A stretch of 64,000 bases of DNA from Sumerlaeia bacterium (GCA_040219255.1 JAVJSW010000008.1:1-64000), one strand, 5' to 3'. Positions 5,244 to 14,371 are shown, numbered from the stretch's first letter. Numbers and translations are program-made. The notes: generated from the sequence alone by a model not told the origin.

Positions 5244-6338
5244 TTGACAGAGGAGGAGCTGACCAAAGCCTTTTCTCTGCTGCGGCAGGATTTTCCCGGG
5301 GCCCACGTGCCAGAGAACGTGACGTGGCGCATTGCGCGATCTTCCAAGAAGGGCATCGAACTCGACGACATCCGTACGTCGGAGGACAACGAGGCGATAG
5401 CGGATTGGATGCTGAGTGAGGTGCGTGAGGCTTGCGGCGCTGACGATAAGTCAGAGGTGCACGCCTCGCTGGCCGGGGGGCGCAAGACGATGAGCTTTCT
5501 GCTGGGCGCCGCGATGCAGTTGTGCGCCCGCCCGCAGGATCGGCTCTATCACGTTCTGGTGCCACCGGAGTTCGAGGTTCGGGGCTTCTATTTTCCGCGA
5601 GCCTGTTCGTCGAAGGAGTCGCTCCTCGAAGTGCGTGGCGGGGGAACCATCGACGCCGCCAAGGCGACCGTCGACCTGGCCGAGGTGCCTTTCGTAAGAC
5701 TGGCTCCGCTGCTGACCGGCGAAGACCTCTCCGAGTTGAACTTTCGCGACCTGATGGCTCGTGCGAACGACGCATTGTCGGACGAATACGGCACCGTTTC
5801 TGTCATCGTACCCGAGCGCGGCAAGTCCGGCAAGGCGGTGGTACGGATTAGCCTGCCTGGCAATCATCAGGTGGACGTGTCGTTCGGCAGTGTGACGAGC
5901 AAGGAGTTCGTGGTTTATTCCTGGCTTCTCTCGCGCCAGCAAAGGGGCTTGCCGCCGCTGGTGCTGATGGACCGCGAGAAGTTCCGCGACCATTTGGACG
6001 ACCTGGTGCTTTGGTGCGAGCATCTCGGAGTGCGGGGCGACGAGTTGAAGCAGTACTCTGATCTGGCCAACGAGTTGGATCAGGCCCGCCGCGACGACCA
6101 ACGCGGCACGGAAGACAAGGATCACGTCGGCGAGTTCTTCCAGAAATCCTGGTACGACCCGCTGAAGGTTTTCCCCGCCCGCGTTCGCGATAGGCTGCAA
6201 AAGGCGTTCCGCGAACAGGCGCGCCAGTGCGGCCACGGCAAGTACACCATCGAAACAAAGGACGGTGATAGCAGAGTGGCTTCCTGGCACGTGACGATCC
6301 CACCCAAGAACATAATCCTACCGGGCGACTCTCGATGA
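5244..6338 (+). CDS. CRISPR-associated CARF protein, NE0113 family, N-terminus apparently missing
   Basis: DDIRTSEDNEAIAD and HASLAGGRKTMS...RPQDRLYHVLV are the NE0113 signature; the usual N-terminal strand/helix is absent and an in-frame TGA lies at 5238-5240. Confidence 0.85.
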   Translation: MTEEELTKAFSLLRQDFPGAHVPENVTWRIARSSKKGIELDDIRTSEDNEAIADWMLSEVREACGADDKSEVHASLAGGRKTMSFLLGAAMQLCARPQDRLYHVLVPPEFEVRGFYFPRACSSKESLLEVRGGGTIDAAKATVDLAEVPFVRLAPLLTGEDLSELNFRDLMARANDALSDEYGTVSVIVPERGKSGKAVVRISLPGNHQVDVSFGSVTSKEFVVYSWLLSRQQRGLPPLVLMDREKFRDHLDDLVLWCEHLGVRGDELKQYSDLANELDQARRDDQRGTEDKDHVGEFFQKSWYDPLKVFPARVRDRLQKAFREQARQCGHGKYTIETKDGDSRVASWHVTIPPKNIILPGDSR

Positions 6339-6384
6339 AGAGACTGGAAACCCTGCTTGTAGATCGCGATTTGGAGACCAAACC

Positions 6385-7596
6385 ATGACTGAAGAAACGC
6401 TCATCTGCATCCCCGGAAAACCCCGCACAAACGCCGGCGAGTACGAAACGGCCCGCTATTCAGCGGTCGGCCGCGGCGAGACGGCGGACGAGCGCGCAAC
6501 GCCACTGTTGGCCCTTGTCGAACTCTATCGCCCCGCGCACTTGGTTGTCCTCTGCACGCCCGAGGCACTGGAGGCTGTCGAATTGTACGAGCAATGGGCC
6601 GCCGAAGAGAATCTTGAACCAAGACCACAGGTGCACCCTGTCAGTATCGAGATCGGCGATGGCCCAGCAGCTATCCCCACCTTGTTGTCGACCATTGCGG
6701 CCGTCGAACCGCCGACGCCGGATGTGCATCTCGACCTGACCTTCGGGCCGCGCTCCGTGACCATCCTGGCGATGCTGTCCGCCCTGGTCCAGGCCGCGGC
6801 GGGGCGATGGTCGCTTCGTCGGCTCACCTACGTCAACTTCGAGGCCCGGCCGTCGCAGGCCCCGGACGCTCCCGTGCCCATCGAGGACCTGACGGCCTAC
6901 CTTGCACTCCCCGCGCTGGCCACCGCCGTCACGAACCTGCGCGAACGTGGCGATCTAGCGGGCTTTGCCGACGCTGCCGCACCCTTCTTCGATTCTGACC
7001 AAACGGGACTCCAGGAAGGAGACCTCGCCGTTGTCCGCGACGCCGTGGCTTTCCTGCGCATCCGCTCGCTGATCGATGGCAGCGCCAATGGCGCCCTCGG
7101 CCGCATCATCGGAGCCCTTCGCCGCCGCGAGGGTGCCAACCCCATGCTGGCGCCTCTGATGGCCGACGCCGAGGAAGTCCTTGCCGGACTGCGCCGCCCC
7201 AAAGGCGCAGAGTCCGCCTCGCCCCCACACTTCGCCGCCATCGTGCAATGGTATCGCCAACACAACCAACCCGACCGCGCGCTTCTGCTGGCCAGCGAGG
7301 CATTGACTATGCTGGTCTGCACCCGGCTCCTTGATTATGAATATCCGCAGAAGCTCGGCGGCGATTTCTGGAAGGCTCGCGACTACTACATCGCCGCGAG
7401 TTCCCAGGCCAGGGGTGACGCGACTCGCGAAACGCTTGCCGGTGAATGTTACAGCCTCTGGGAACATATGAGCAAAGTTCGCGGCGATTTCGCCCACGCC
7501 TCCCTCACGTCGAAACCCTCCCCACACAGCACCGTCAGCGAAGACCACGTTAACCCCCTTCTCGACCGATTCGGCGAACTCTGCGACCGGCTGTGA
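6385..7596 (+). CDS. csx1: Csx1/TM1812-like CARF-HEPN ribonuclease
   Basis: HLDLTFGPRS (DxTHG-like CARF motif) and C-terminal RGDFAH (HEPN R-X4-H); RBS GGAG upstream. Confidence 0.75.
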   Translation: MTEETLICIPGKPRTNAGEYETARYSAVGRGETADERATPLLALVELYRPAHLVVLCTPEALEAVELYEQWAAEENLEPRPQVHPVSIEIGDGPAAIPTLLSTIAAVEPPTPDVHLDLTFGPRSVTILAMLSALVQAAAGRWSLRRLTYVNFEARPSQAPDAPVPIEDLTAYLALPALATAVTNLRERGDLAGFADAAAPFFDSDQTGLQEGDLAVVRDAVAFLRIRSLIDGSANGALGRIIGALRRREGANPMLAPLMADAEEVLAGLRRPKGAESASPPHFAAIVQWYRQHNQPDRALLLASEALTMLVCTRLLDYEYPQKLGGDFWKARDYYIAASSQARGDATRETLAGECYSLWEHMSKVRGDFAHASLTSKPSPHSTVSEDHVNPLLDRFGELCDRL

Positions 7597-7681
7597 AGCC
7601 CCGCGCCGCGCAACGTTGCAGGTCCTTGAGTCAGGCTCCCCGGCGTTGCCAGTCCGCCGGCGTCTCCCATGCCCATAGCCC

Positions 7682-7849
7682 ATGGACGACCGCGCCATCT
7701 CCATGATTCGCGACGCCCTCATGGAACTCATGGACCTTGCCCAGGACAGCCTGCGCATCTACCGTGTCGAAGAATCGGCCATCGACCGCGCCGAGCACCT
7801 GGGCCGCCAGCCCGAGTACGAATTCATGGGCCAGACCTTGATCTTCTGA
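7682..7849 (+). pseudogene. cas2: 5'-truncated Cas2 (C-terminal half)
   Basis: Manual translation MDDRAISMIRDALMELMDLAQDSLRIYRVEESAIDRAEHLGRQPEYEFMGQTLIF matches the I-C-type Cas2 C-terminus (D..DSLRxY...EHxG...LI); in-frame TAG at 7676-7678; directly upstream of the leader. Confidence 0.75.
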
Positions 7850-8003
7850 TGGGGGGCCATGCCCACTCCAGCGGACCCCAAGAAAGCGCGCCATGCCCAC
7901 CCCATCCGCAGGATTCGTCAACCCCGGGAAAGACCAAAAAGGGAGGAGGTTGACGATTCTCACCCCGCATCCGAAGCTCTACCAAGGGTTTCAAGGGGAT
8001 GCA
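7850..8003 (+). promoter_or_regulatory. CRISPR leader
   Basis: Non-coding 154 bp between the cas2 stop and the first repeat; repeats end in GTTGAAAC, which gives + orientation. Confidence 0.65.
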
Positions 8004-8124
8004 GTCACCACCCCTCCCCGGAGTGGTCACGTGTTGAAACCCTGAGTCTTCACGCCGTATGACGTGTCAACCGATTCGAGTCACGACCCCTCCCCGGAGT
8101 GGTCGAGTGGTCACGTGTTGAAAC

Positions 8125-8203
8125 GAGCAACATGCTTGGCCGAATCCTGATGGGAATTCGGGAAAATCTTCGGATATCTGACCCGAAAACCGTCAGGGGG
8201 TAG
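8125..8203 (+). pseudogene. 3' end of a NADAR-family (YbiA-like) gene, cut at repeat R2
   Basis: Frame from 8126 reads SNMLGRILMGIRENLRISDPKTVRG-stop; N-x-LG-x-x-LM-x-(I/V)R-x-x-L is the NADAR C-terminal motif. Confidence 0.6.
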
Positions 8204-8362
8204 CATCCCATGGGGTATCGAGCACCGTTGAATAATCAACAGAAACCTTGAACTTCTTCCGAAAAAATGGTCCATAGCGCAACACCATGAATCTCTTCTC
8301 ACAAGGTGCCCCCGCCTCCCACACGGCTAAATGCTGATGAGGCAAAGGCACCTTGGAGAACT

Positions 8363-8641
8363 CTACTCGCCGAATATCTTGTTCATGAATGCGTAGTACG
8401 CCCACGCGACATCGATCAGAATACCGGCTATGAAGGCAAGTATCGGCAGAACTGCGAAGAATGCTGGGACGTCCACCCCGTTCTTCGTATAGGTAACTCC
8501 TGCCTCACCAAAAGATCCGAAGAGCAAGACCACGGGGACAGCAAGCACAAGGGCGACCAGCGCCAACACGAACGGCAGCGCTACCATTCTGGCTATCAGG
8601 CCGGCAGTGGATAGGCGTTTGTCTCCATTGTTACCGTTCAT
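8363..8641 (-). CDS. small two-TM membrane protein (insert A)
   Basis: 92-aa ORF with two hydrophobic helices; AAGGGG RBS upstream on the minus strand. Confidence 0.6.
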   Translation of the reverse strand: MNGNNGDKRLSTAGLIARMVALPFVLALVALVLAVPVVLLFGSFGEAGVTYTKNGVDVPAFFAVLPILAFIAGILIDVAWAYYAFMNKIFGE

Positions 8642-8667
8642 CGCTTCGTCCCCTTAACCAAGAAAAT

Positions 8668-8685
8668 AGTCTCGACGTCGAGACT
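8668..8685. repeat. perfect 18-bp palindrome AGTCTCGACGTCGAGACT, copy 1
   Basis: Exact palindrome in the divergent intergenic gap; identical copy at 10000-10017; 1-mismatch copy at 11257-11274. Confidence 0.9.
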
Positions 8686-8819
8686 GTCTTCTCACTGCCG
8701 CGACATCATAAGTTTTCATGCAAGCGCGCACTCCAGCCAACAAGCTGACACTCCGGCTGATGTGCGCGCAAGCCGTTTTCACCACCATGGCTGAAACAAC
8801 AGCCACGAAAGGCACTACT

Positions 8820-9077
8820 ATGTCCACCAATACGACCGAGATCGTCAACACCAATCCCGCCGCCGACCACGAAGGGGGTGCATCTCCCGAGGACCGAAAG
8901 GTCTGCATTGACAAATACCTCGCGGCGGCTAAGGCTTTCCGGGCCAAGTACCAGAAGAAGGGCTTCTACTACGACGAGAAGTCCTCTGAGTGGATGAAGG
9001 CCACGAAACAGCAAAAGGCTGATAACCGTTTCGAGGGAAGTACATGTCAGAGCCAAAGCCCGGTGAGCGTAGCTTGA
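8820..9077 (+). CDS. small hypothetical protein (insert A)
   Basis: MSTNTTEIVN... preceded by GAAAGG RBS; lies within ORF 8718..9077. Confidence 0.55.
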   Translation: MSTNTTEIVNTNPAADHEGGASPEDRKVCIDKYLAAAKAFRAKYQKKGFYYDEKSSEWMKATKQQKADNRFEGSTCQSQSPVSVA

Positions 9078-9082
9078 CAGCC

Positions 9083-9259
9083 ATGGAAAAAGGCAAGCGG
9101 GGGACCATCCATGATGGACTCTCCTGGCCTGGGCTTTTCGCGGTGATCGGATACATCATCGTCAAGTGGTTCTTCTACGTCTTCCTACCAGCGGTGGTTT
9201 TCGCGATCATCGTCTTCATCCTCACGATCCTTGGCTTGTTCTTCGGCATCATAAGCTGA
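9083..9259 (+). CDS. small membrane protein (insert A)
   Basis: MEKGKRGTIHDGLSWPGLFAVIGY...; long hydrophobic C-terminus; followed by a terminator. Confidence 0.55.
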   Translation: MEKGKRGTIHDGLSWPGLFAVIGYIIVKWFFYVFLPAVVFAIIVFILTILGLFFGIIS

Positions 9260-9281
9260 CCTTCACCACTGTCGCCATTCA

Positions 9282-9337
9282 AACCCCTCGTCTCCCTCTG
9301 CTACACCAGCGGACGGAGACGAGGGGTTATTTTTTTT
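9282..9337 (+). terminator. intrinsic terminator
   Basis: AACCCCTCGTCTCC / GGAGACGAGGGGTT 14-bp stem followed by a T-tract. Confidence 0.8.
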
Positions 9338-9585
9338 ACCCCACTGGTTGGCACTGGCACTATACGGCACCAGCACCCCACCCGCCGTCCCTTGGCACTG
9401 GCACCATTTGGCACCCTGGCCACCCTAAAAAGGGAGTAACAAGTCCAAATGCCAAGTTTTGGTCAAAACTTCAAAATTCACCCCCAAAAAAGAGGGGCAA
9501 TACAGCCTCGTCACGGAAAAATGGGCTGAAAACTAAGGGTTTTGTAAGTCTTCTCATATCAATGGACTACAAAACACGAGGCAGG

Positions 9586-9932
9586 TTTTCGATCATAGGG
9601 TGGATGCCACTTTTCAACCACCAGGATCACCCCTCACAGAGGAAGCTTCCAGGTTGTCTTGGCCTGCTGGGCGAGCGAAGCGAGCCCCTCTTCCCCCGGA
9701 TTGGCACTCTGAGAGGCTACTTGGCTGATATTGCTCAGCTTAGCCGCTCTCTGGGCTAGGCCTGGGGGATTCTTATTCTGTGTTGCGGTTGATTGGCTAT
9801 CAGCGCTCTTTTTGGGCGAGCGCAGCGAGCCCATCGTCTCTGGTAAGGGCCATTCCTTGGCACTTTTCCAAGTCAAACAATATCAACACTCTACAAATCA
9901 GGAGGTAACTTTTCGATCATAGGGTGGATGCC
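9586..9932 (+). repeat. 23-bp direct repeat TTTTCGATCATAGGGTGGATGCC (9586-9608, 9910-9932) enclosing two GGGCGAGCG(A/C)AGCGAGCCC motifs (9669, 9814)
   Basis: Read directly from the sequence; similarity extends imperfectly on both flanks. Confidence 0.85.
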
Positions 9933-9999
9933 CATTTTCCACCCTACCGAAGGCTGCCCTCCAAGCAAACATCCAAACATCACAAACCACCCTCCAACC

Positions 10000-10017
10000 A
10001 GTCTCGACGTCGAGACT
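10000..10017. repeat. perfect 18-bp palindrome, copy 2
   Basis: AGTCTCGACGTCGAGACT about 90 bp upstream of ORF 10108. Confidence 0.9.
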
Positions 10018-10107
10018 AACCCTCATCACCACCAACTACCCTCCAACCACCCATCCAACCCATCAGCATCCAAGCATTCCACCCCCCCCTAAAGGACCCA
10101 AAACCCA

Positions 10108-10509
10108 ATGCCCATCTACGATACAGCGGAAAAGCTTCTCCTTGGCTACCTGACCATTGCAGCCCTGTGGCTCGTTATTCATAGGTACTATGCCCGAACA
10201 CTCTTCCAAAAGTGCCTGGAGCCGAGAAGCGAAACCATCATCAACAGGGTCAGAGATAGGCTCGTCAGCCACTCTAGAGGCGAAGCAGAGACCTTCCTCC
10301 TCGACTGGGCCATCCAAGCAGCCACCTACCACATCGTCTCCATGACACCAAAGTACTGGGAGATCAAAGCCGGATCCCTAGAGGAGGAAGTTATTTCGCT
10401 GAAAGCGGAGCAGGCTGTGCTGAAACACATTAGAGTCACGACCCCTCCCCGGAGTGGTCACGTGTTGAAACGCCAAGAAGGCCGGTTGTCGGCCAGGAGA
10501 CGTTCGTGA
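10108..10509 (+). CDS. hypothetical membrane-anchored protein reading through CRISPR repeat R3 (chimeric C-terminus)
   Basis: AAAGGA RBS; N-terminal TM; repeat translated as VTTPPRSGHVLK; TGA overlaps the GTG of the next gene. Confidence 0.55.
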   Translation: MPIYDTAEKLLLGYLTIAALWLVIHRYYARTLFQKCLEPRSETIINRVRDRLVSHSRGEAETFLLDWAIQAATYHIVSMTPKYWEIKAGSLEEEVISLKAEQAVLKHIRVTTPPRSGHVLKRQEGRLSARRRS

Positions 10510-11093
10510 GCGACACGTACCGCAATTTCGAAGACGTGCTGCGGCATCACCCGGACCCAAGGTTCCGGGTCGTCGCCGTGCCGCAGTCATCACCCGTTCT
10601 GATTGCCGCTCCGCATGGAGGCGGAATTGAATTTCAAACGGACGTGATCGCACGCCACGTGGCCCGCAAAGGATCATTCTCCCTCTACCAACTTGTGTGG
10701 ATGGGGAAGCAAGCCCGCGATGCCCACATTACGAGCCACCGATTTTTTGAAAAGGACCTCGATCTCCTTCTGAAGAGACACCACTGGACCGTCACCATAC
10801 ACGGTTTCCGGTCGGAGCGACCGTGCGTGGAGATCGGCGGGATGAACGAGAAATTTAAGTGTGCCCTTTATGAGGCTATGTTAGAACACGATATTTCCGC
10901 GATATTTTCTAAGAATATTCGCGAAGGCGCGCACCCGAAAAATATATGCAATAGGGGGCTCGGCATCAACGGCGGCGTTCAACTCGAATTTAGCTCGGCA
11001 ATCAGAAGCATTTTTCTCGATAACTACGACGAACAGTGTCGAGCAGTACGCTCAATTTGCTCTGGAATTTCAAGATTCGCAGGTGATTTTTAA
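10506..11093 (+). CDS. poly-gamma-glutamate hydrolase family protein (DUF867/YjqB/PghP-like), insert B
   Basis: IAAPHGGGIE, HITSHRF, TIHGF and HPKNICNRG...GVQLE motifs; AGGAG RBS at 10495-10499. Confidence 0.85.
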   Translation: MSDTYRNFEDVLRHHPDPRFRVVAVPQSSPVLIAAPHGGGIEFQTDVIARHVARKGSFSLYQLVWMGKQARDAHITSHRFFEKDLDLLLKRHHWTVTIHGFRSERPCVEIGGMNEKFKCALYEAMLEHDISAIFSKNIREGAHPKNICNRGLGINGGVQLEFSSAIRSIFLDNYDEQCRAVRSICSGISRFAGDF

Positions 11094-11390
11094 TGAACAA
11101 GGACGAGAGACCAAAAAAAATTGCGAGCTCGTCAGTTCGACGAGAATTTGCCCGATCTGCCTGTGGAGCATGGCCTAATCCAGTCGGTCATTTTAGACGA
11201 TGCAGAGTCCCTGGTCGAAGTCACGACCCCTCCCCGGAGTGGTGACGTGACGAAACAGTCTCAACGTCGAGACTGAACTGCCCGTCTTCTTGCCGGTCAC
11301 GCCCCCGCTCCGGCGGGGTCGCCCGTTGAAACAAGGGCGCGCCATTGCAAGCGCCCGCCTGCGCCAGCAGTCCCGACCCACTTCTACAAA

Positions 11391-11442
11391 CAACGCCCCG
11401 CCCCGTCCTGATCTTATCGCTCAGGGCAGGGCGGGGCTGTTG
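11391..11442. terminator. GC-rich stem-loop at the array end, between the array and the convergent helicase gene
   Basis: GCCCCGCCCCGTCCTGA / TCAGGGCAGGGCGGGGC imperfect inverted repeat; no clear T-tract. Confidence 0.45.
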
Positions 11443-11624
11443 GCGTCAGGGTCAGGGAGCGACAGTGTTGAAGACACAGTGTGATCACAAAACACGGCGG
11501 GGGGGGTGGAATCGTTGTGGGCACACCAGGTGGGCGGCTTCACGGGAACGCGCGCTCCGCCGAGGAGATGGAGAAGATGGGCTTCGGAGGATCGGCCGCC
11601 CTGTCGTTGGCGTCCTTGGCGAGT

Positions 11625-13304
11625 TCAAGTGAAGTTCGAAAGTCCACCTTCTGCCACGTTGCAATCGCCGCCTTCCCCAATACCCAATTCGGCCAGGACG
11701 CCGGCGGTGGGGTCGGCTCCTGAATCGAGAATGGCGGCGAAGCGGGCAAGCGTGGCCAGCCGATAGGCCCGGCGCTCCTCGACCGTGGTCAGCAACCCAT
11801 CGAGCGCGTTGTCATCGAGCGGATTTCCCCGGCGCAGGAAAAGGCACTTGTCGGGCGCGGAGGTCAGACGAAGCCGTCCAGCCCCAAAAAGGCCGAACAA
11901 TTGATCCCGAACAGCGTGCAGGGGTTGTTCCAGCCGCCGCGCGATCGTGATGAGCATGCCAGTGCGCGTCATTCCCCTGATCGTTTCGAAGGCGGCGCAG
12001 CTTTGCGGCGGCGCTTCGAAGCAGGCGATCGTGCCGATGCCACGGCCGAGCACCTGGACGCATCCGGCGCGCACAAGGTGGTGGAAAGACGTCAGCGCGT
12101 GATCGTCGCCCCCGAGCGTTTCATAGAGGTTCCACGTGGTGGCGTGGTCGGTGAGCGCCAGGCGTTGGTCGAGCACGGCAACGAAATCGCTGGCGCCAGG
12201 AAACTGCCCGGCTATGAGATCGCGCCGCACCGCCACGTTGGTGGGGGTGTAGAGCAGAACACCGCGCGCGGCGAACCCATCGCGCCCGCCCCGGCCCACT
12301 TCCTGGTAGAACTGCTCGGCGGACTCGGGCATCAGATAGTGTACCACCAGCCGGATGTCGGGAATGTCGATGCCCATGCCAAAGGCGCTGGTGGCGAAAA
12401 CGGTGTGAAGCGAGCCGTTGAGAAAACCGGCCAGCACGCCGCGCTTTTCCTCGTCGGTGCGGTCGGCGTCGAAGTAGTCCACGCCTTGCACGGGACCACC
12501 GAAGTGGCTGGCGAGCGAGCTGGTCCCGTACCTTCCGGATTTGCGGTGGACGTAAACCAGCGTCTTGCCTCGGCCGGGATCGGCTAGGAGATCTTCGAGG
12601 CGCGCCAGCTTGGCGTCCTCATCCTCGTGGCTCTCCACGGAAAGCTCCAGGTTTGTGCGGCGCAGGCAGTCGCTGCGTAGAACGGCTGATTCATCGAGTC
12701 CGAACTCGGCGCGGATTTCCCTCTCCTCGCGCGGATTCAATGTCGCCGTCAGGCCCAACAACGGCGGCCGTTCTCCATCGTCGAAGACGCGGTGGAGAAA
12801 AGATGGCAGCCCCTTGTAGGATGGGCGGAAGCTGTGGCCCCACTGCGAAATGCAGTGCGCCTCGTCGATGACAACGAGGCCGATGCGGTCACGAACGCGT
12901 TGAAGAACGTACTCGACAAAGCCATCGGAGAAAGCTCGCTCGGGTGAGAGAAAGAGGAAACGCGGGCGCGCATCGTTGAGCACCTCGTCGCGCAGGATTT
13001 CGTACTGGCGCTTGCCGCTGATGCCGCAGTGCAACTCGGTGGCGAGGAGCCCGAGAGAGCGGAGCACGGCACATTGCTGGCCAATCAATGCGCGCAGCGG
13101 CGAGACGACCAGCGTGAGTCCACCGCGCACAAGCCCGGCGACCTGGTAAACGAGCGATTTGCCGCTCCCCGTGGGGGCGAGATAGAGCAGCGACTCGCCG
13201 CGGACAAGGCGGTCGATGGCCTCCTCCTGCCGGTCGCGGAAGTCAGGAATCGCTGGAAAGTGGCGAGCGAGAGCATGGCGAATTGTTGGGGCGGCAGCGG
13301 TCAT
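11625..13304 (-). CDS. RecQ-family ATP-dependent DNA helicase (no HRDC domain)
   Basis: APTGSGKS, IDEAHCISQWGHSFRPSY, TAT, ATSAFGMGID and QEVGRGGRDG motifs; ATG at 13304 overlaps the upstream stop (ATGA). Confidence 0.9.
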   Translation of the reverse strand: MTAAAPTIRHALARHFPAIPDFRDRQEEAIDRLVRGESLLYLAPTGSGKSLVYQVAGLVRGGLTLVVSPLRALIGQQCAVLRSLGLLATELHCGISGKRQYEILRDEVLNDARPRFLFLSPERAFSDGFVEYVLQRVRDRIGLVVIDEAHCISQWGHSFRPSYKGLPSFLHRVFDDGERPPLLGLTATLNPREEREIRAEFGLDESAVLRSDCLRRTNLELSVESHEDEDAKLARLEDLLADPGRGKTLVYVHRKSGRYGTSSLASHFGGPVQGVDYFDADRTDEEKRGVLAGFLNGSLHTVFATSAFGMGIDIPDIRLVVHYLMPESAEQFYQEVGRGGRDGFAARGVLLYTPTNVAVRRDLIAGQFPGASDFVAVLDQRLALTDHATTWNLYETLGGDDHALTSFHHLVRAGCVQVLGRGIGTIACFEAPPQSCAAFETIRGMTRTGMLITIARRLEQPLHAVRDQLFGLFGAGRLRLTSAPDKCLFLRRGNPLDDNALDGLLTTVEERRAYRLATLARFAAILDSGADPTAGVLAELGIGEGGDCNVAEGGLSNFT

Positions 13305-14371
13305 CCGGAACAACCTCCCGCGTCCATTTCGGGCGCCCAATCCTTTGTGACGGAAAGATTCTCGTCGGCGACGAACTTCAGAAAATCGCCGGCGATCACC
13401 ATGCGGTGCGACTCGGGAAACGGGACGCCAAGGCATTCGGCAGCCTCCTGCAGCAAGGCGGCGACGCGAGCGACATGCAGGAAGAAGGGTGCATAGAGAT
13501 AGGTGTAATTGGAATAGCAGGCGCCGCTCCTGACGTCCCAAAGAACGAACTCTGGCGTCTCCAGAGCACCGGTGCACTGACCGGACAGAAAGTGGAGACC
13601 GGTGAGTGCAAACCTCGAACGCCAGGGCAACAGCGCGGGCTCGCGAAAATGGAGCAGCGCGCTTGTGATGCCCAGACCGATCGTGCCGGGGAGGCAAAGC
13701 GGGGCGACCTGAAGCCCACCGCGACGCGGCATCGCACCATCCTGGGAGTAGGGATTCTCGAGAGGCGCGAATGGCAGACAGGCAGGGTCTGTCTCGCCCA
13801 GCAAATTCTCCCAGACATAAAGGCGCGGGAAGTCCGCGGCGAATTCCACAAGCCCGCCAACGAGCGCGAGAATGGCACGCGGGTCCTGCTTGCACGCCAT
13901 GTGCAGACGGCGTTTCCACGGCTCCATGTCCTCGAGCTTCGCGTTACGCGCATTGTTGATAATGGGCAGCTTCTTGAGGAAATCGCGGACGAACTGATTG
14001 GGGTCCTCGGCATATTCCTCCAGGACTTCCGCATCGAGAATGCAATCGTACGAATCCCGGCGCTGACTCTCATAATCGAGAATGGCTTCATCGGTGCGTT
14101 GACGCAGACGAGTCTGCGGGTCCATCACCAGGCTGGAATGCTGGCCGCGTAATCCCTTCTGGAAACGCGCCTGGCCCACGAGCGCATGTTTCGCATAGCG
14201 CTCGAAATAGTCCTGAAAACCACGCGCGATTTCCCCTGCGACCGCGGCCGCATGACTGGGATCGAGGATCGTTTGGAAATCGTCATACTGGCCGCGAATC
14301 ATGTCCAGGTCTCCCATCAAGGCGATAGAAGGAACCTCGCATGCCCATTCGCGAATGTCACGACGCTGCAA
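13301..14371 (-). CDS. hypothetical protein translationally coupled to the RecQ-like helicase
   Basis: 356-aa ORF; PGTIGLGITSALLH is loosely HhH-like; start uncertain. Confidence 0.7.
   Translation of the reverse strand: MQRRDIREWACEVPSIALMGDLDMIRGQYDDFQTILDPSHAAAVAGEIARGFQDYFERYAKHALVGQARFQKGLRGQHSSLVMDPQTRLRQRTDEAILDYESQRRDSYDCILDAEVLEEYAEDPNQFVRDFLKKLPIINNARNAKLEDMEPWKRRLHMACKQDPRAILALVGGLVEFAADFPRLYVWENLLGETDPACLPFAPLENPYSQDGAMPRRGGLQVAPLCLPGTIGLGITSALLHFREPALLPWRSRFALTGLHFLSGQCTGALETPEFVLWDVRSGACYSNYTYLYAPFFLHVARVAALLQEAAECLGVPFPESHRMVIAGDFLKFVADENLSVTKDWAPEMDAGGCSG

Follow-up and report, generated by a model that had tools for sequence, protein, structure and literature searches.

We analysed a 64-kb window, the start of contig C8 in the genome of a Sumerlaeia bacterium (GCA_040219255.1, JAVJSW010000008.1:1-64000; a metagenome-type genome of 83 contigs and 5.35 Mb, 92% complete), which carries a CRISPR array in which two of the intervals between repeats are as long as genes. 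Between 8004 and 11332, on the + strand, we recognised five copies of a 37-nt repeat that ends in GTTGAAAC, separated by intervals that measure, in order, 39, 2310, 748 and 39 nt. The first copy, R1 (8004-8040), is followed by S1 (8041-8079), a spacer of normal size (39 nt) that matches nothing else in the genome. R2 (8080-8124) and R3 (10435-10471) enclose the first long interval, insert A (8125..10434, + strand, 2310 nt), and R3 and R4 (11220-11256) enclose the second, insert B (10472..11219, + strand, 748 nt); a second 39-nt spacer, S4 (11257-11295), and a degenerate terminal repeat, R5 (11296-11332), complete the array. The original prediction, made from the DNA alone, had reported both oversize intervals, and their geometry is as it described.

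Repeat identities were counted against R3, the reference copy, which is without private change. R1 agrees at 36/37 positions (private G6>C), R2 at 37/37 plus an internal 8-nt tandem duplication (GAGTGGTC) that extends it to 45 nt and makes it a unique variant, R4 at 34/37, with three private changes that all fall in its 3′ part, and R5 at 29/37. The duplication in R2 is exact and lies mid-repeat; replication slippage and the footprint of an excised element with an 8-bp target duplication are both possible. No two of the five repeats are identical, and R1-R4 have diverged by 4 substitutions and 1 indel across 148 nt. Direct repeats of one family (29-37 of 37 positions) with unique spacers are thus present as in any CRISPR array, except for the two intervals beyond spacer size. 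Six repeats had been predicted; we count five, as the doubtful sixth copy (11370-11406, + strand) has 13/37 identities with R3, a level reached by 14.7% of all 37-nt windows of the contig, and is favoured by its spacing (74 nt) alone; counted with it, three intervals have a normal length (37-39 nt).

We compared the locus with 60 relatives, among which only G002, a member of the same family, and G020 hold a related array. At the orthologous position in G002 the order is a second array, Cmr4, Cmr5, a Cmr6/Cmr1 fusion, a CARF gene, csx1, cas1 (Pfam E 1.2e-73), cas2 (E 3.5e-19), a leader, an array in which ten copies of the repeat are identical, the spacers measure 36-40 nt and the terminal repeat is degenerate, and a helicase gene. 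R5 and the degenerate terminal repeats of the G002 arrays have ACGCCCCC and GGGGTCGCC in common (compared by eye). In the window, the cmr genes have been lost from the locus. The CARF-domain gene of the Csx1/ring-nuclease family (5244..6338, + strand; Pfam Cas_NE0113, E 2.6e-26; NCBIfam TIGR02584, E 2.1e-36 over profile positions 56-205 only; PADLOC CARF5, 79-347/351) is truncated at its 5′ end: it has about 80 N-terminal codons fewer than its G002 orthologue, and DNA homology to G002 begins at 5349. The adjoining type III ancillary gene, a Csx1/Csm6 gene with CARF and HEPN domains (6385..7596, + strand; PADLOC E 2.8e-28), has a G002 orthologue that is 75% identical. Between this gene and the array, cas1 and the first ~120 nt of cas2 have been deleted, leaving 34 bp in place of the 1341 bp in G002.

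What remains of cas2 is a 3′ fragment of 55 codons (7682..7849, + strand; PADLOC Cas2c 44-93/95, E 7.3e-8; Pfam Cas2 41-71/74, E 0.059) that covers only the C-terminal half of the protein and shows 82.6% DNA identity to the 3′ end of the G002 gene. A leader-like region (7850..8003, + strand) is identified by its position only, between the cas2 stub and R1, and showed no DNA similarity to the G002 leader in the locus comparison. The view that the array follows cas2 and a leader therefore holds for the stub and, by position, for the leader; it fails for a complete cas2, as the 94-aa open reading frame (ORF) at 7669-7953 that had probably been read as this gene is an overlapping junk frame, and cas1 is absent from the array locus. 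The two cas1 genes of the genome are found on contigs C49 and C10, next to arrays whose 32-nt repeats are different, and neither Cas10 (Csm1 or Cmr2 models) nor Cas6 (PF01881) was found anywhere in this 92% complete genome. Downstream, a RecQ/DpdF/PsyrT-like helicase gene (11625..13919, − strand) is the conserved neighbour of the array, with 75% DNA identity to G002. We note that the top PADLOC matches of this gene are DpdF (E 2.7e-83) and PsyrT (E 4.6e-76), which makes it a putative defence gene beside the relic, as it is in G002.

The repeats tell the same story as the genes. Repeat copies are identical in 32/32 cases in G002 and in 23/25 in G020; as no two copies are identical here and those of the relatives nearly all are, the array has drifted since its last renewal. 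A renewable array has a cas1-cas2 pair and repeats that are kept identical, and we found neither. Although the array is genuine and has kept its ancestral position, what is left is the stump of a type III-B CRISPR-Cas locus, unable to acquire spacers.

A rival explanation is that the assembler made the long intervals, by leaving the array at a spacer or repeat that it has in common with a co-occurring phage and returning through another. The genome is of metagenome type, its other three arrays all sit at contig starts, and at the start of contig C49 its own array is repeated in inverted orientation, so such faults do occur in this assembly. We note that C49:1-330 consists of two reverse repeats followed by the same array in forward orientation, with one spacer present in both orientations (37 nt, 92%), which is likely to be a fold-back artefact. 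At the array of the window, however, all k-mers of at least 33 nt in 7950-11450 are unique in the genome, and at k=27-31 the only words in common are those of R1/R3 and R2/R3. Because R2 and R4 are unique variants, the paths S1-R2-A and B-R4-S4 are unambiguous, and whenever k is at least ~29 the two variants link S1 with A and B with S4. An artefact would also take four crosswise mis-joins; no leftover contig carries the repeat, and the flanks are syntenic with G002. A chimeric contig produced by such a walk is unlikely, and we give it very little weight.

The DNA of both inserts is foreign to the host. Their G+C content (GC) of 0.530 (A) and 0.524 (B) lies well below that of the upstream (0.631) and downstream (0.627) genes, as had been predicted. 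By DNA, the inserts have no counterpart elsewhere in the genome, and tblastx against the genome returned noise only; among the 60 relatives we found only R3, matching the G020 array, and one 31-nt match (E 7.8e-4). The original prediction had proposed looking for the source in viral and plasmid DNA. Insert A had no blastn match in phage DNA, A+R3+B had none in plasmids, the hydrolase gene of insert B was found at no locus in viral contigs, and no donor emerged. Together with the synteny of the array with G002, these observations support the reading that the long intervals are phage- or plasmid-like DNA within a genuine host array at its orthologous position, and the claim of foreign inserts is upheld.

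Insert B carries a gene of the poly-gamma-glutamate hydrolase family (PF05908/DUF867; 10506-11093, + strand; Pfam E 4.6e-35, profile 1-180/191). An AGGAG ribosome-binding site, located by eye, begins 23 nt after R3 and lies 7 nt before the GTG start. We aligned the 195-aa protein with seven homologues picked from 120 listed; over the whole alignment the homologues (192-200 aa) are 31-37% identical to it, its best local BLASTP alignments reach 36-42% identity, and it keeps 35/35 of the columns that are invariant across the eight aligned sequences. Among solved structures in the PDB, its relatives are YndL, a prophage protein, and PghP, a phage enzyme. Judged by this conservation, the gene is intact, full length and probably still functional, in agreement with the prediction of an intact foreign gene in the array. 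No sigma-70-like promoter was found on the + strand of 7600-11700; with no promoter-like site of its own, the hydrolase gene would be transcribable only by read-through from upstream. The GC of insert B is uneven (0.591 in the first half and 0.457 in the second); the alignment of the hydrolase to its homologues is nevertheless continuous. Behind the hydrolase gene, an unassigned ORF without known relatives starts at 11093 or 11121 (+ strand), and its first ~33-42 codons (99-127 nt) run into R4.

A spacer of the array is linked to insert A. Insert A contains an 18-nt perfect palindrome twice (8668-8685 and 10000-10017), each time upstream of ORFs, and the first 18 nt of S4 are this palindrome with one mismatch (17/18). 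Allowing up to 2 mismatches, the palindrome occurs at six sites in 5.35 Mb, against ~0.2 expected by chance by our own arithmetic: the two in insert A, the one in S4 and three on contig C14. In viral contigs there were two single-site matches, which we judged compatible with chance. As S4 starts with the palindrome of insert A, the array had recorded a member of the element family to which insert A belongs.

The three sites on C14 lie inside a 1.4-kb stretch of an island of low GC (0.47-0.54) at the end of that contig (54000-59279), which is possibly a resident relative of the donor element. The island has large ORFs without a Pfam or PHROG family. The nearest Atlas clusters of its 616-aa protein carry Phage_CRI, a rolling-circle initiator of filamentous phages (feature score 0.93; TM 0.38 by query and 0.60 by row), and Atlas placed a 599-aa ORF near phage proteins, both placements being leads only. 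We rejected the island as a filamentous phage, for which Atlas gives a lead only and Pfam and PHROG give no support.

We also compared R4-S4-R5 with CreA-like regulatory mini-arrays, in which degenerate repeats enclose a spacer whose match to a nearby promoter is partial and anchored at its 5′ end. Over its first 18 nt, S4 agrees (17/18) with the palindromes that lie upstream of ORFs at 8668 and 10000, and no effector complex was found; R4-S4-R5 could conceivably persist as a regulatory mini-array, with the operator-like palindromes of the captured element as its targets. It is not a mini-array that the element brought with it, as R5 has derived states in common with the G002 terminal repeats.

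The inserts had been described as abutting the repeats exactly. This is correct as geometry but does not demonstrate a flush junction: a remnant of an ordinary spacer, as long as ~40 nt, could stand at each end of both long intervals. In B, as much as the first 22 nt, left of the ribosome-binding site, could be a former spacer. In A, the conserved core of a NADAR-like gene tail, aligned by eye, falls within 40 nt of R2, and a phage NADAR gene could even have supplied this stretch as an ordinary spacer. Insertion inside a spacer, or a swap between two spacers, also gives an interval bounded exactly by repeats, so abutment is weak as evidence, and the flush geometry does not separate capture of the integrase type from other routes.

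One such route is capture by Cas1-Cas2 before cas1 was lost. Kilobase fragments would have been joined at the leader-proximal repeat with duplication of the repeat, first B, then A, then S1, either by full-site integration without a length ruler or by repair of a half-site intermediate. This model naturally yields inserts that are adjacent, have full repeats on either side and end at arbitrary points in genes; S4 would show that a normal spacer had earlier been acquired from this element family, the ancestor had a cas1-cas2 pair at this place, and the related casposon integrases, as described in PMC6452270, insert kilobase-size DNA with target duplication. The inserts, at 2310 and 748 nt, stand against a spacer range of 35-40 nt (31 spacers of G002), and flush junctions are not demonstrable given the possible ~40 nt of old spacer at each end. 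The original prediction had suggested tabulating inter-repeat lengths in relatives: none of the 54 intervals in G002 and G020 is oversize (for G020 from 24 start-to-start distances of 72-91), and the other three arrays of this genome are regular. Captured in this way, the inserts would predate S1 and every change by which the repeats have decayed, yet they keep an intact hydrolase ORF and an unameliorated GC; at the rate seen in R1-R4, a neutral gene of 588 nt would have gathered ~16 substitutions and several indels, a rough figure drawn from few events. To our knowledge there is no published case of Cas1-Cas2 joining over-long DNA in vivo, although our literature search was not aimed at this point. 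With cas1 deleted, cas2 a stub, all repeats different and the hydrolase intact, we consider oversize integration, which had been offered as the first explanation, to be improbable. The still more specific proposal, that Cas1-Cas2 joined kilobase invader fragments in the manner of a casposase before its loss and that the array can transcribe the resulting intact hydrolase gene, strikes us as very improbable.

A second route is insertion driven by the element itself, or illegitimate insertion, inside spacers or just 3′ of ...GTTGAAAC, without terminal inverted repeats (TIRs) or duplication. An ordinary insertion sequence or transposon can be set aside. In scans with Pfam, NCBIfam, PADLOC and PHROGs, the PF05908 hydrolase was the only insert ORF to match a family below E 0.1, and there was no transposase or integrase among the insert ORFs; no integrase was found in the immediate flanks (ORFs of 5244-7953 and 11625-14371). 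None of 16 inverted-repeat pairs sits at the insert ends, and a scan for target duplications gave 1 candidate for A against 2.06 expected from shuffles and 0 for B against 1.69. Within these scans, the predicted lack of transposase, TIRs and target duplication is borne out, and it is what a strand transfer of the HUH or rolling-circle type or a one-ended transposition would leave behind; on this route, the original spacer would survive as the last ~38 nt of each interval. The two left junctions share one position in the repeat, the 616-aa protein of C14 near Phage_CRI offers a lead (and only a lead), and the 8-nt duplication in R2 could be the footprint of an excised element. Against this, there is no mobility gene in or beside the inserts, neither Pfam nor PHROGs confirms Phage_CRI for the C14 protein, the two inserts have no common end sequences, and a fragment that begins in the tail of a gene is no element with defined ends. 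We regard this route as a minor possibility.

We tentatively favour a third route, in which the inserts entered by homologous recombination with array sequences as arms, although our confidence in it falls a little short of even. That a 5.3-Mb genome has two foreign insertions at a distance of 76 nt asks for a cause specific to the array, and homology to the array supplies one without any enzyme that the locus lacks. In the variant that we prefer, itself a possibility well short of even, the arms would be spacers. The array would once have held several normal spacers against the donor element, and a double crossover between two of these spacers and their protospacers would have swapped the intervening repeat-spacer units for DNA of the element. 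The swap would have occurred twice, at neighbouring positions, and the first and last ~35-40 nt of each insert would be the old spacers. This model would explain why the intervals are flush, why their edges fall anywhere within genes and why the array is short; such recombination would work best with interference dead, as it is here. The hydrolase ORF has remained intact despite the decay of the repeats, which fits an arrival after the last activity of Cas1-Cas2, and recombination allows such a late arrival. Spacer-protospacer recombination had been named as the second alternative in the original prediction, and it is the one that we favour.

Several observations weigh against recombination. 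No donor element was found, so neither protospacers nor element-borne repeats were seen. No other spacer matches the inserts, among 38 in the other arrays of this genome and 31 in G002. Beyond the palindrome, S4 is not significantly similar to the flank of any site (best shuffle p 0.019 in 10 comparisons), and for this reason we rejected an extended similarity between S4 and the sequence flanking the 8668 site. With arms of 35-40 bp, recombination of the RecA type would be working close to its lower limit, and the double crossover would have to happen on two separate occasions. The genes at the insert edges, four in all, have the sense orientation of the array, and spacers so oriented would have been non-functional for an RNA-targeting type III system. 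The argument from timing leans on few mutations (the 4 substitutions and 1 indel of R1-R4), and selection on the hydrolase would void it.

Alternatively, recombination could have used repeats as arms, through a crossover between host repeats and repeat copies borne by the element as solitary units or mini-arrays; we consider this variant unlikely. The tail of a gene lies beside the repeat, unlike in an integrated whole element, and no repeat-bearing element was found. The exact repeat pattern had 0 matches in the genome, metagenome and viral collections, and a looser pattern of the repeat family had 0 matches in viral contigs and one in a single other genome record; these collections hold little from this phylum, so that absence is weak evidence. 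Relatives of Csx1 numbered 0 in metagenome contigs. A solitary repeat was found nowhere else in this genome (blastn-short), and all copies in G002 and G020 with up to 3 mismatches lie inside arrays.

Other geometries were tried and rejected. A single crossover with a circular element at one spacer is contradicted by the ends of A and B, which have no direct repeat in common. We dropped the idea that A and B were contiguous in the donor and R3 was inserted between them, as removal of R3 puts ORF 10108, the last of insert A, out of frame with the hydrolase (by eye). Contiguity in the order B to A through one NADAR gene also fails, as neither frame after the hydrolase matches NADAR at E up to 10.

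The remaining content of insert A is that of a fragment with few recognisable genes. Its first 24 codons (8126-8197, + strand) resemble the C-terminal tail of a NADAR protein, as had been predicted. The assignment is plausible in that NADAR is the sole Pfam match, and weak in that it covers 15 profile positions (149-163/163) at E 0.1; by eye, 7/15 residues agree with the C terminus of a real NADAR protein from the relative G006, and no NADAR body was found in the genome. In another relative, G016 (C22:20436-20911), a NADAR gene was matched in two pieces with one in-frame TGA and may be broken or recoded. The small ORFs of insert A are without relatives and two are membrane-like; they include a membrane-like ORF of 92 aa (8363-8641, − strand) and ORFs at 8718-9077 and 9044-9259 (both + strand). 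A hairpin followed by a T-run (9282-9335) precedes TGGCAC-rich short direct repeats that are iteron- or sigma-54-like (9348-9415), and direct repeats of 80 nt occur at 9540-9619 and at 9864-9943, at a distance of 324 nt and with 76% identity, and enclose a further pair, of 26-nt repeats. ORF 10108 (10108-10434, + strand) had no relative but itself among 7 candidates and stays open through R3 to 10509. It crosses R3 in frame and ends at a TGA that shares bases with the GTG at which the hydrolase starts (GTGA), a layout found in translationally coupled genes; the ORF from 11121 enters R4 in the same repeat frame as ORF 10108 enters R3. Either arrangement may be chance.

If the junctions are real, the locus would be a natural case, in a little-studied bacterial phylum, of even a dead array serving as a landing site for DNA of the elements it had recorded. 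It would support the idea that immune memory doubles as homology for recombination and so promotes gene transfer. If capture by Cas1-Cas2 were true instead, CRISPR adaptation could occasionally serve as a route of gene capture. The locus also carries a caution, in that intervals flush with repeats are insufficient by themselves to show capture of the integrase type.

The original prediction likened the array to an integron. Integron cassettes are promoterless genes in one orientation, set between short repeated sites downstream of a leader that bears a promoter. The likeness extends to a promoterless gene in the orientation of the array between short repeated sites. An integron has a tyrosine-recombinase integrase, attI and cassettes that attC sites bound; here there is no integrase, no attC-type site and no sign of excision or reshuffling; the 'cassettes' are gene fragments, and the sites that bound them are CRISPR repeats. 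With no integrase or recombination machinery, and as a relic known from one locus only, the array gives no support to the idea of an integron-like device for gene capture. Casposons offer a second comparison, as their Cas1-family casposases are described in PMC6452270 as inserting kilobase DNA with a target duplication much like the duplication of the repeat around a new spacer; as far as that account goes, casposons carry their own TIRs, Cas1 and polymerase, and none of these is present in the inserts.

Closer parallels come from interactions between arrays and viruses. According to the summary in PMC8616872, Faure 2019b proposed that viruses integrate into host arrays through virus-borne solitary repeat units or mini-arrays. 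As in that proposal, foreign DNA is bounded here by full repeats and interrupts the array; the proposal in its summarised form predicts a whole, repeat-carrying element, whereas we see fragments, with a gene cut at the edge, and found no repeat-bearing element. Recombination between CRISPR spacers and phage targets has been reported (Varble 2019, Watson 2018, as summarised in PMC8616872). There, too, the short identity between spacer and protospacer acts as an arm between chromosome and invader; in the cases as summarised, CRISPR-Cas loci and adjacent regions were moved by transducing particles, whereas here we propose a replacement of repeat-spacer units by two crossovers.

The nearest precedent is locus F of S. 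solfataricus, a leaderless and inactive array in which an 899-bp fragment of a pNOB8-like plasmid lies between two repeats (PMC4390879, section 4.5). We tried the observation made for Sulfolobus that the insert equals a whole number of repeat-spacer units and rejected it, as 2347/76 is 30.9 and 785/76 is 10.3, which fails for B. Both loci hold mobile-element DNA of kilobase scale in an inter-repeat interval of an array that is dead for acquisition, leaderless there and cas1-less here. Locus F belongs to an archaeal type I/III context, and its donor comes from a known plasmid family that itself bears small CRISPR loci; the present locus is a bacterial type III-B relic with two adjacent inserts and an intact gene, for which no donor was found. 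If its junctions are real, the locus would be the bacterial counterpart to this single Sulfolobus precedent. It is a relic of moderate interest and not a new capture system. It belongs to a known kind, the CRISPR array interrupted by mobile-element DNA between its repeats, and what is unusual about it is the combination of two adjacent fragments, an intact promoterless gene that shares the array's orientation and a spacer that is linked to the family of the same element.

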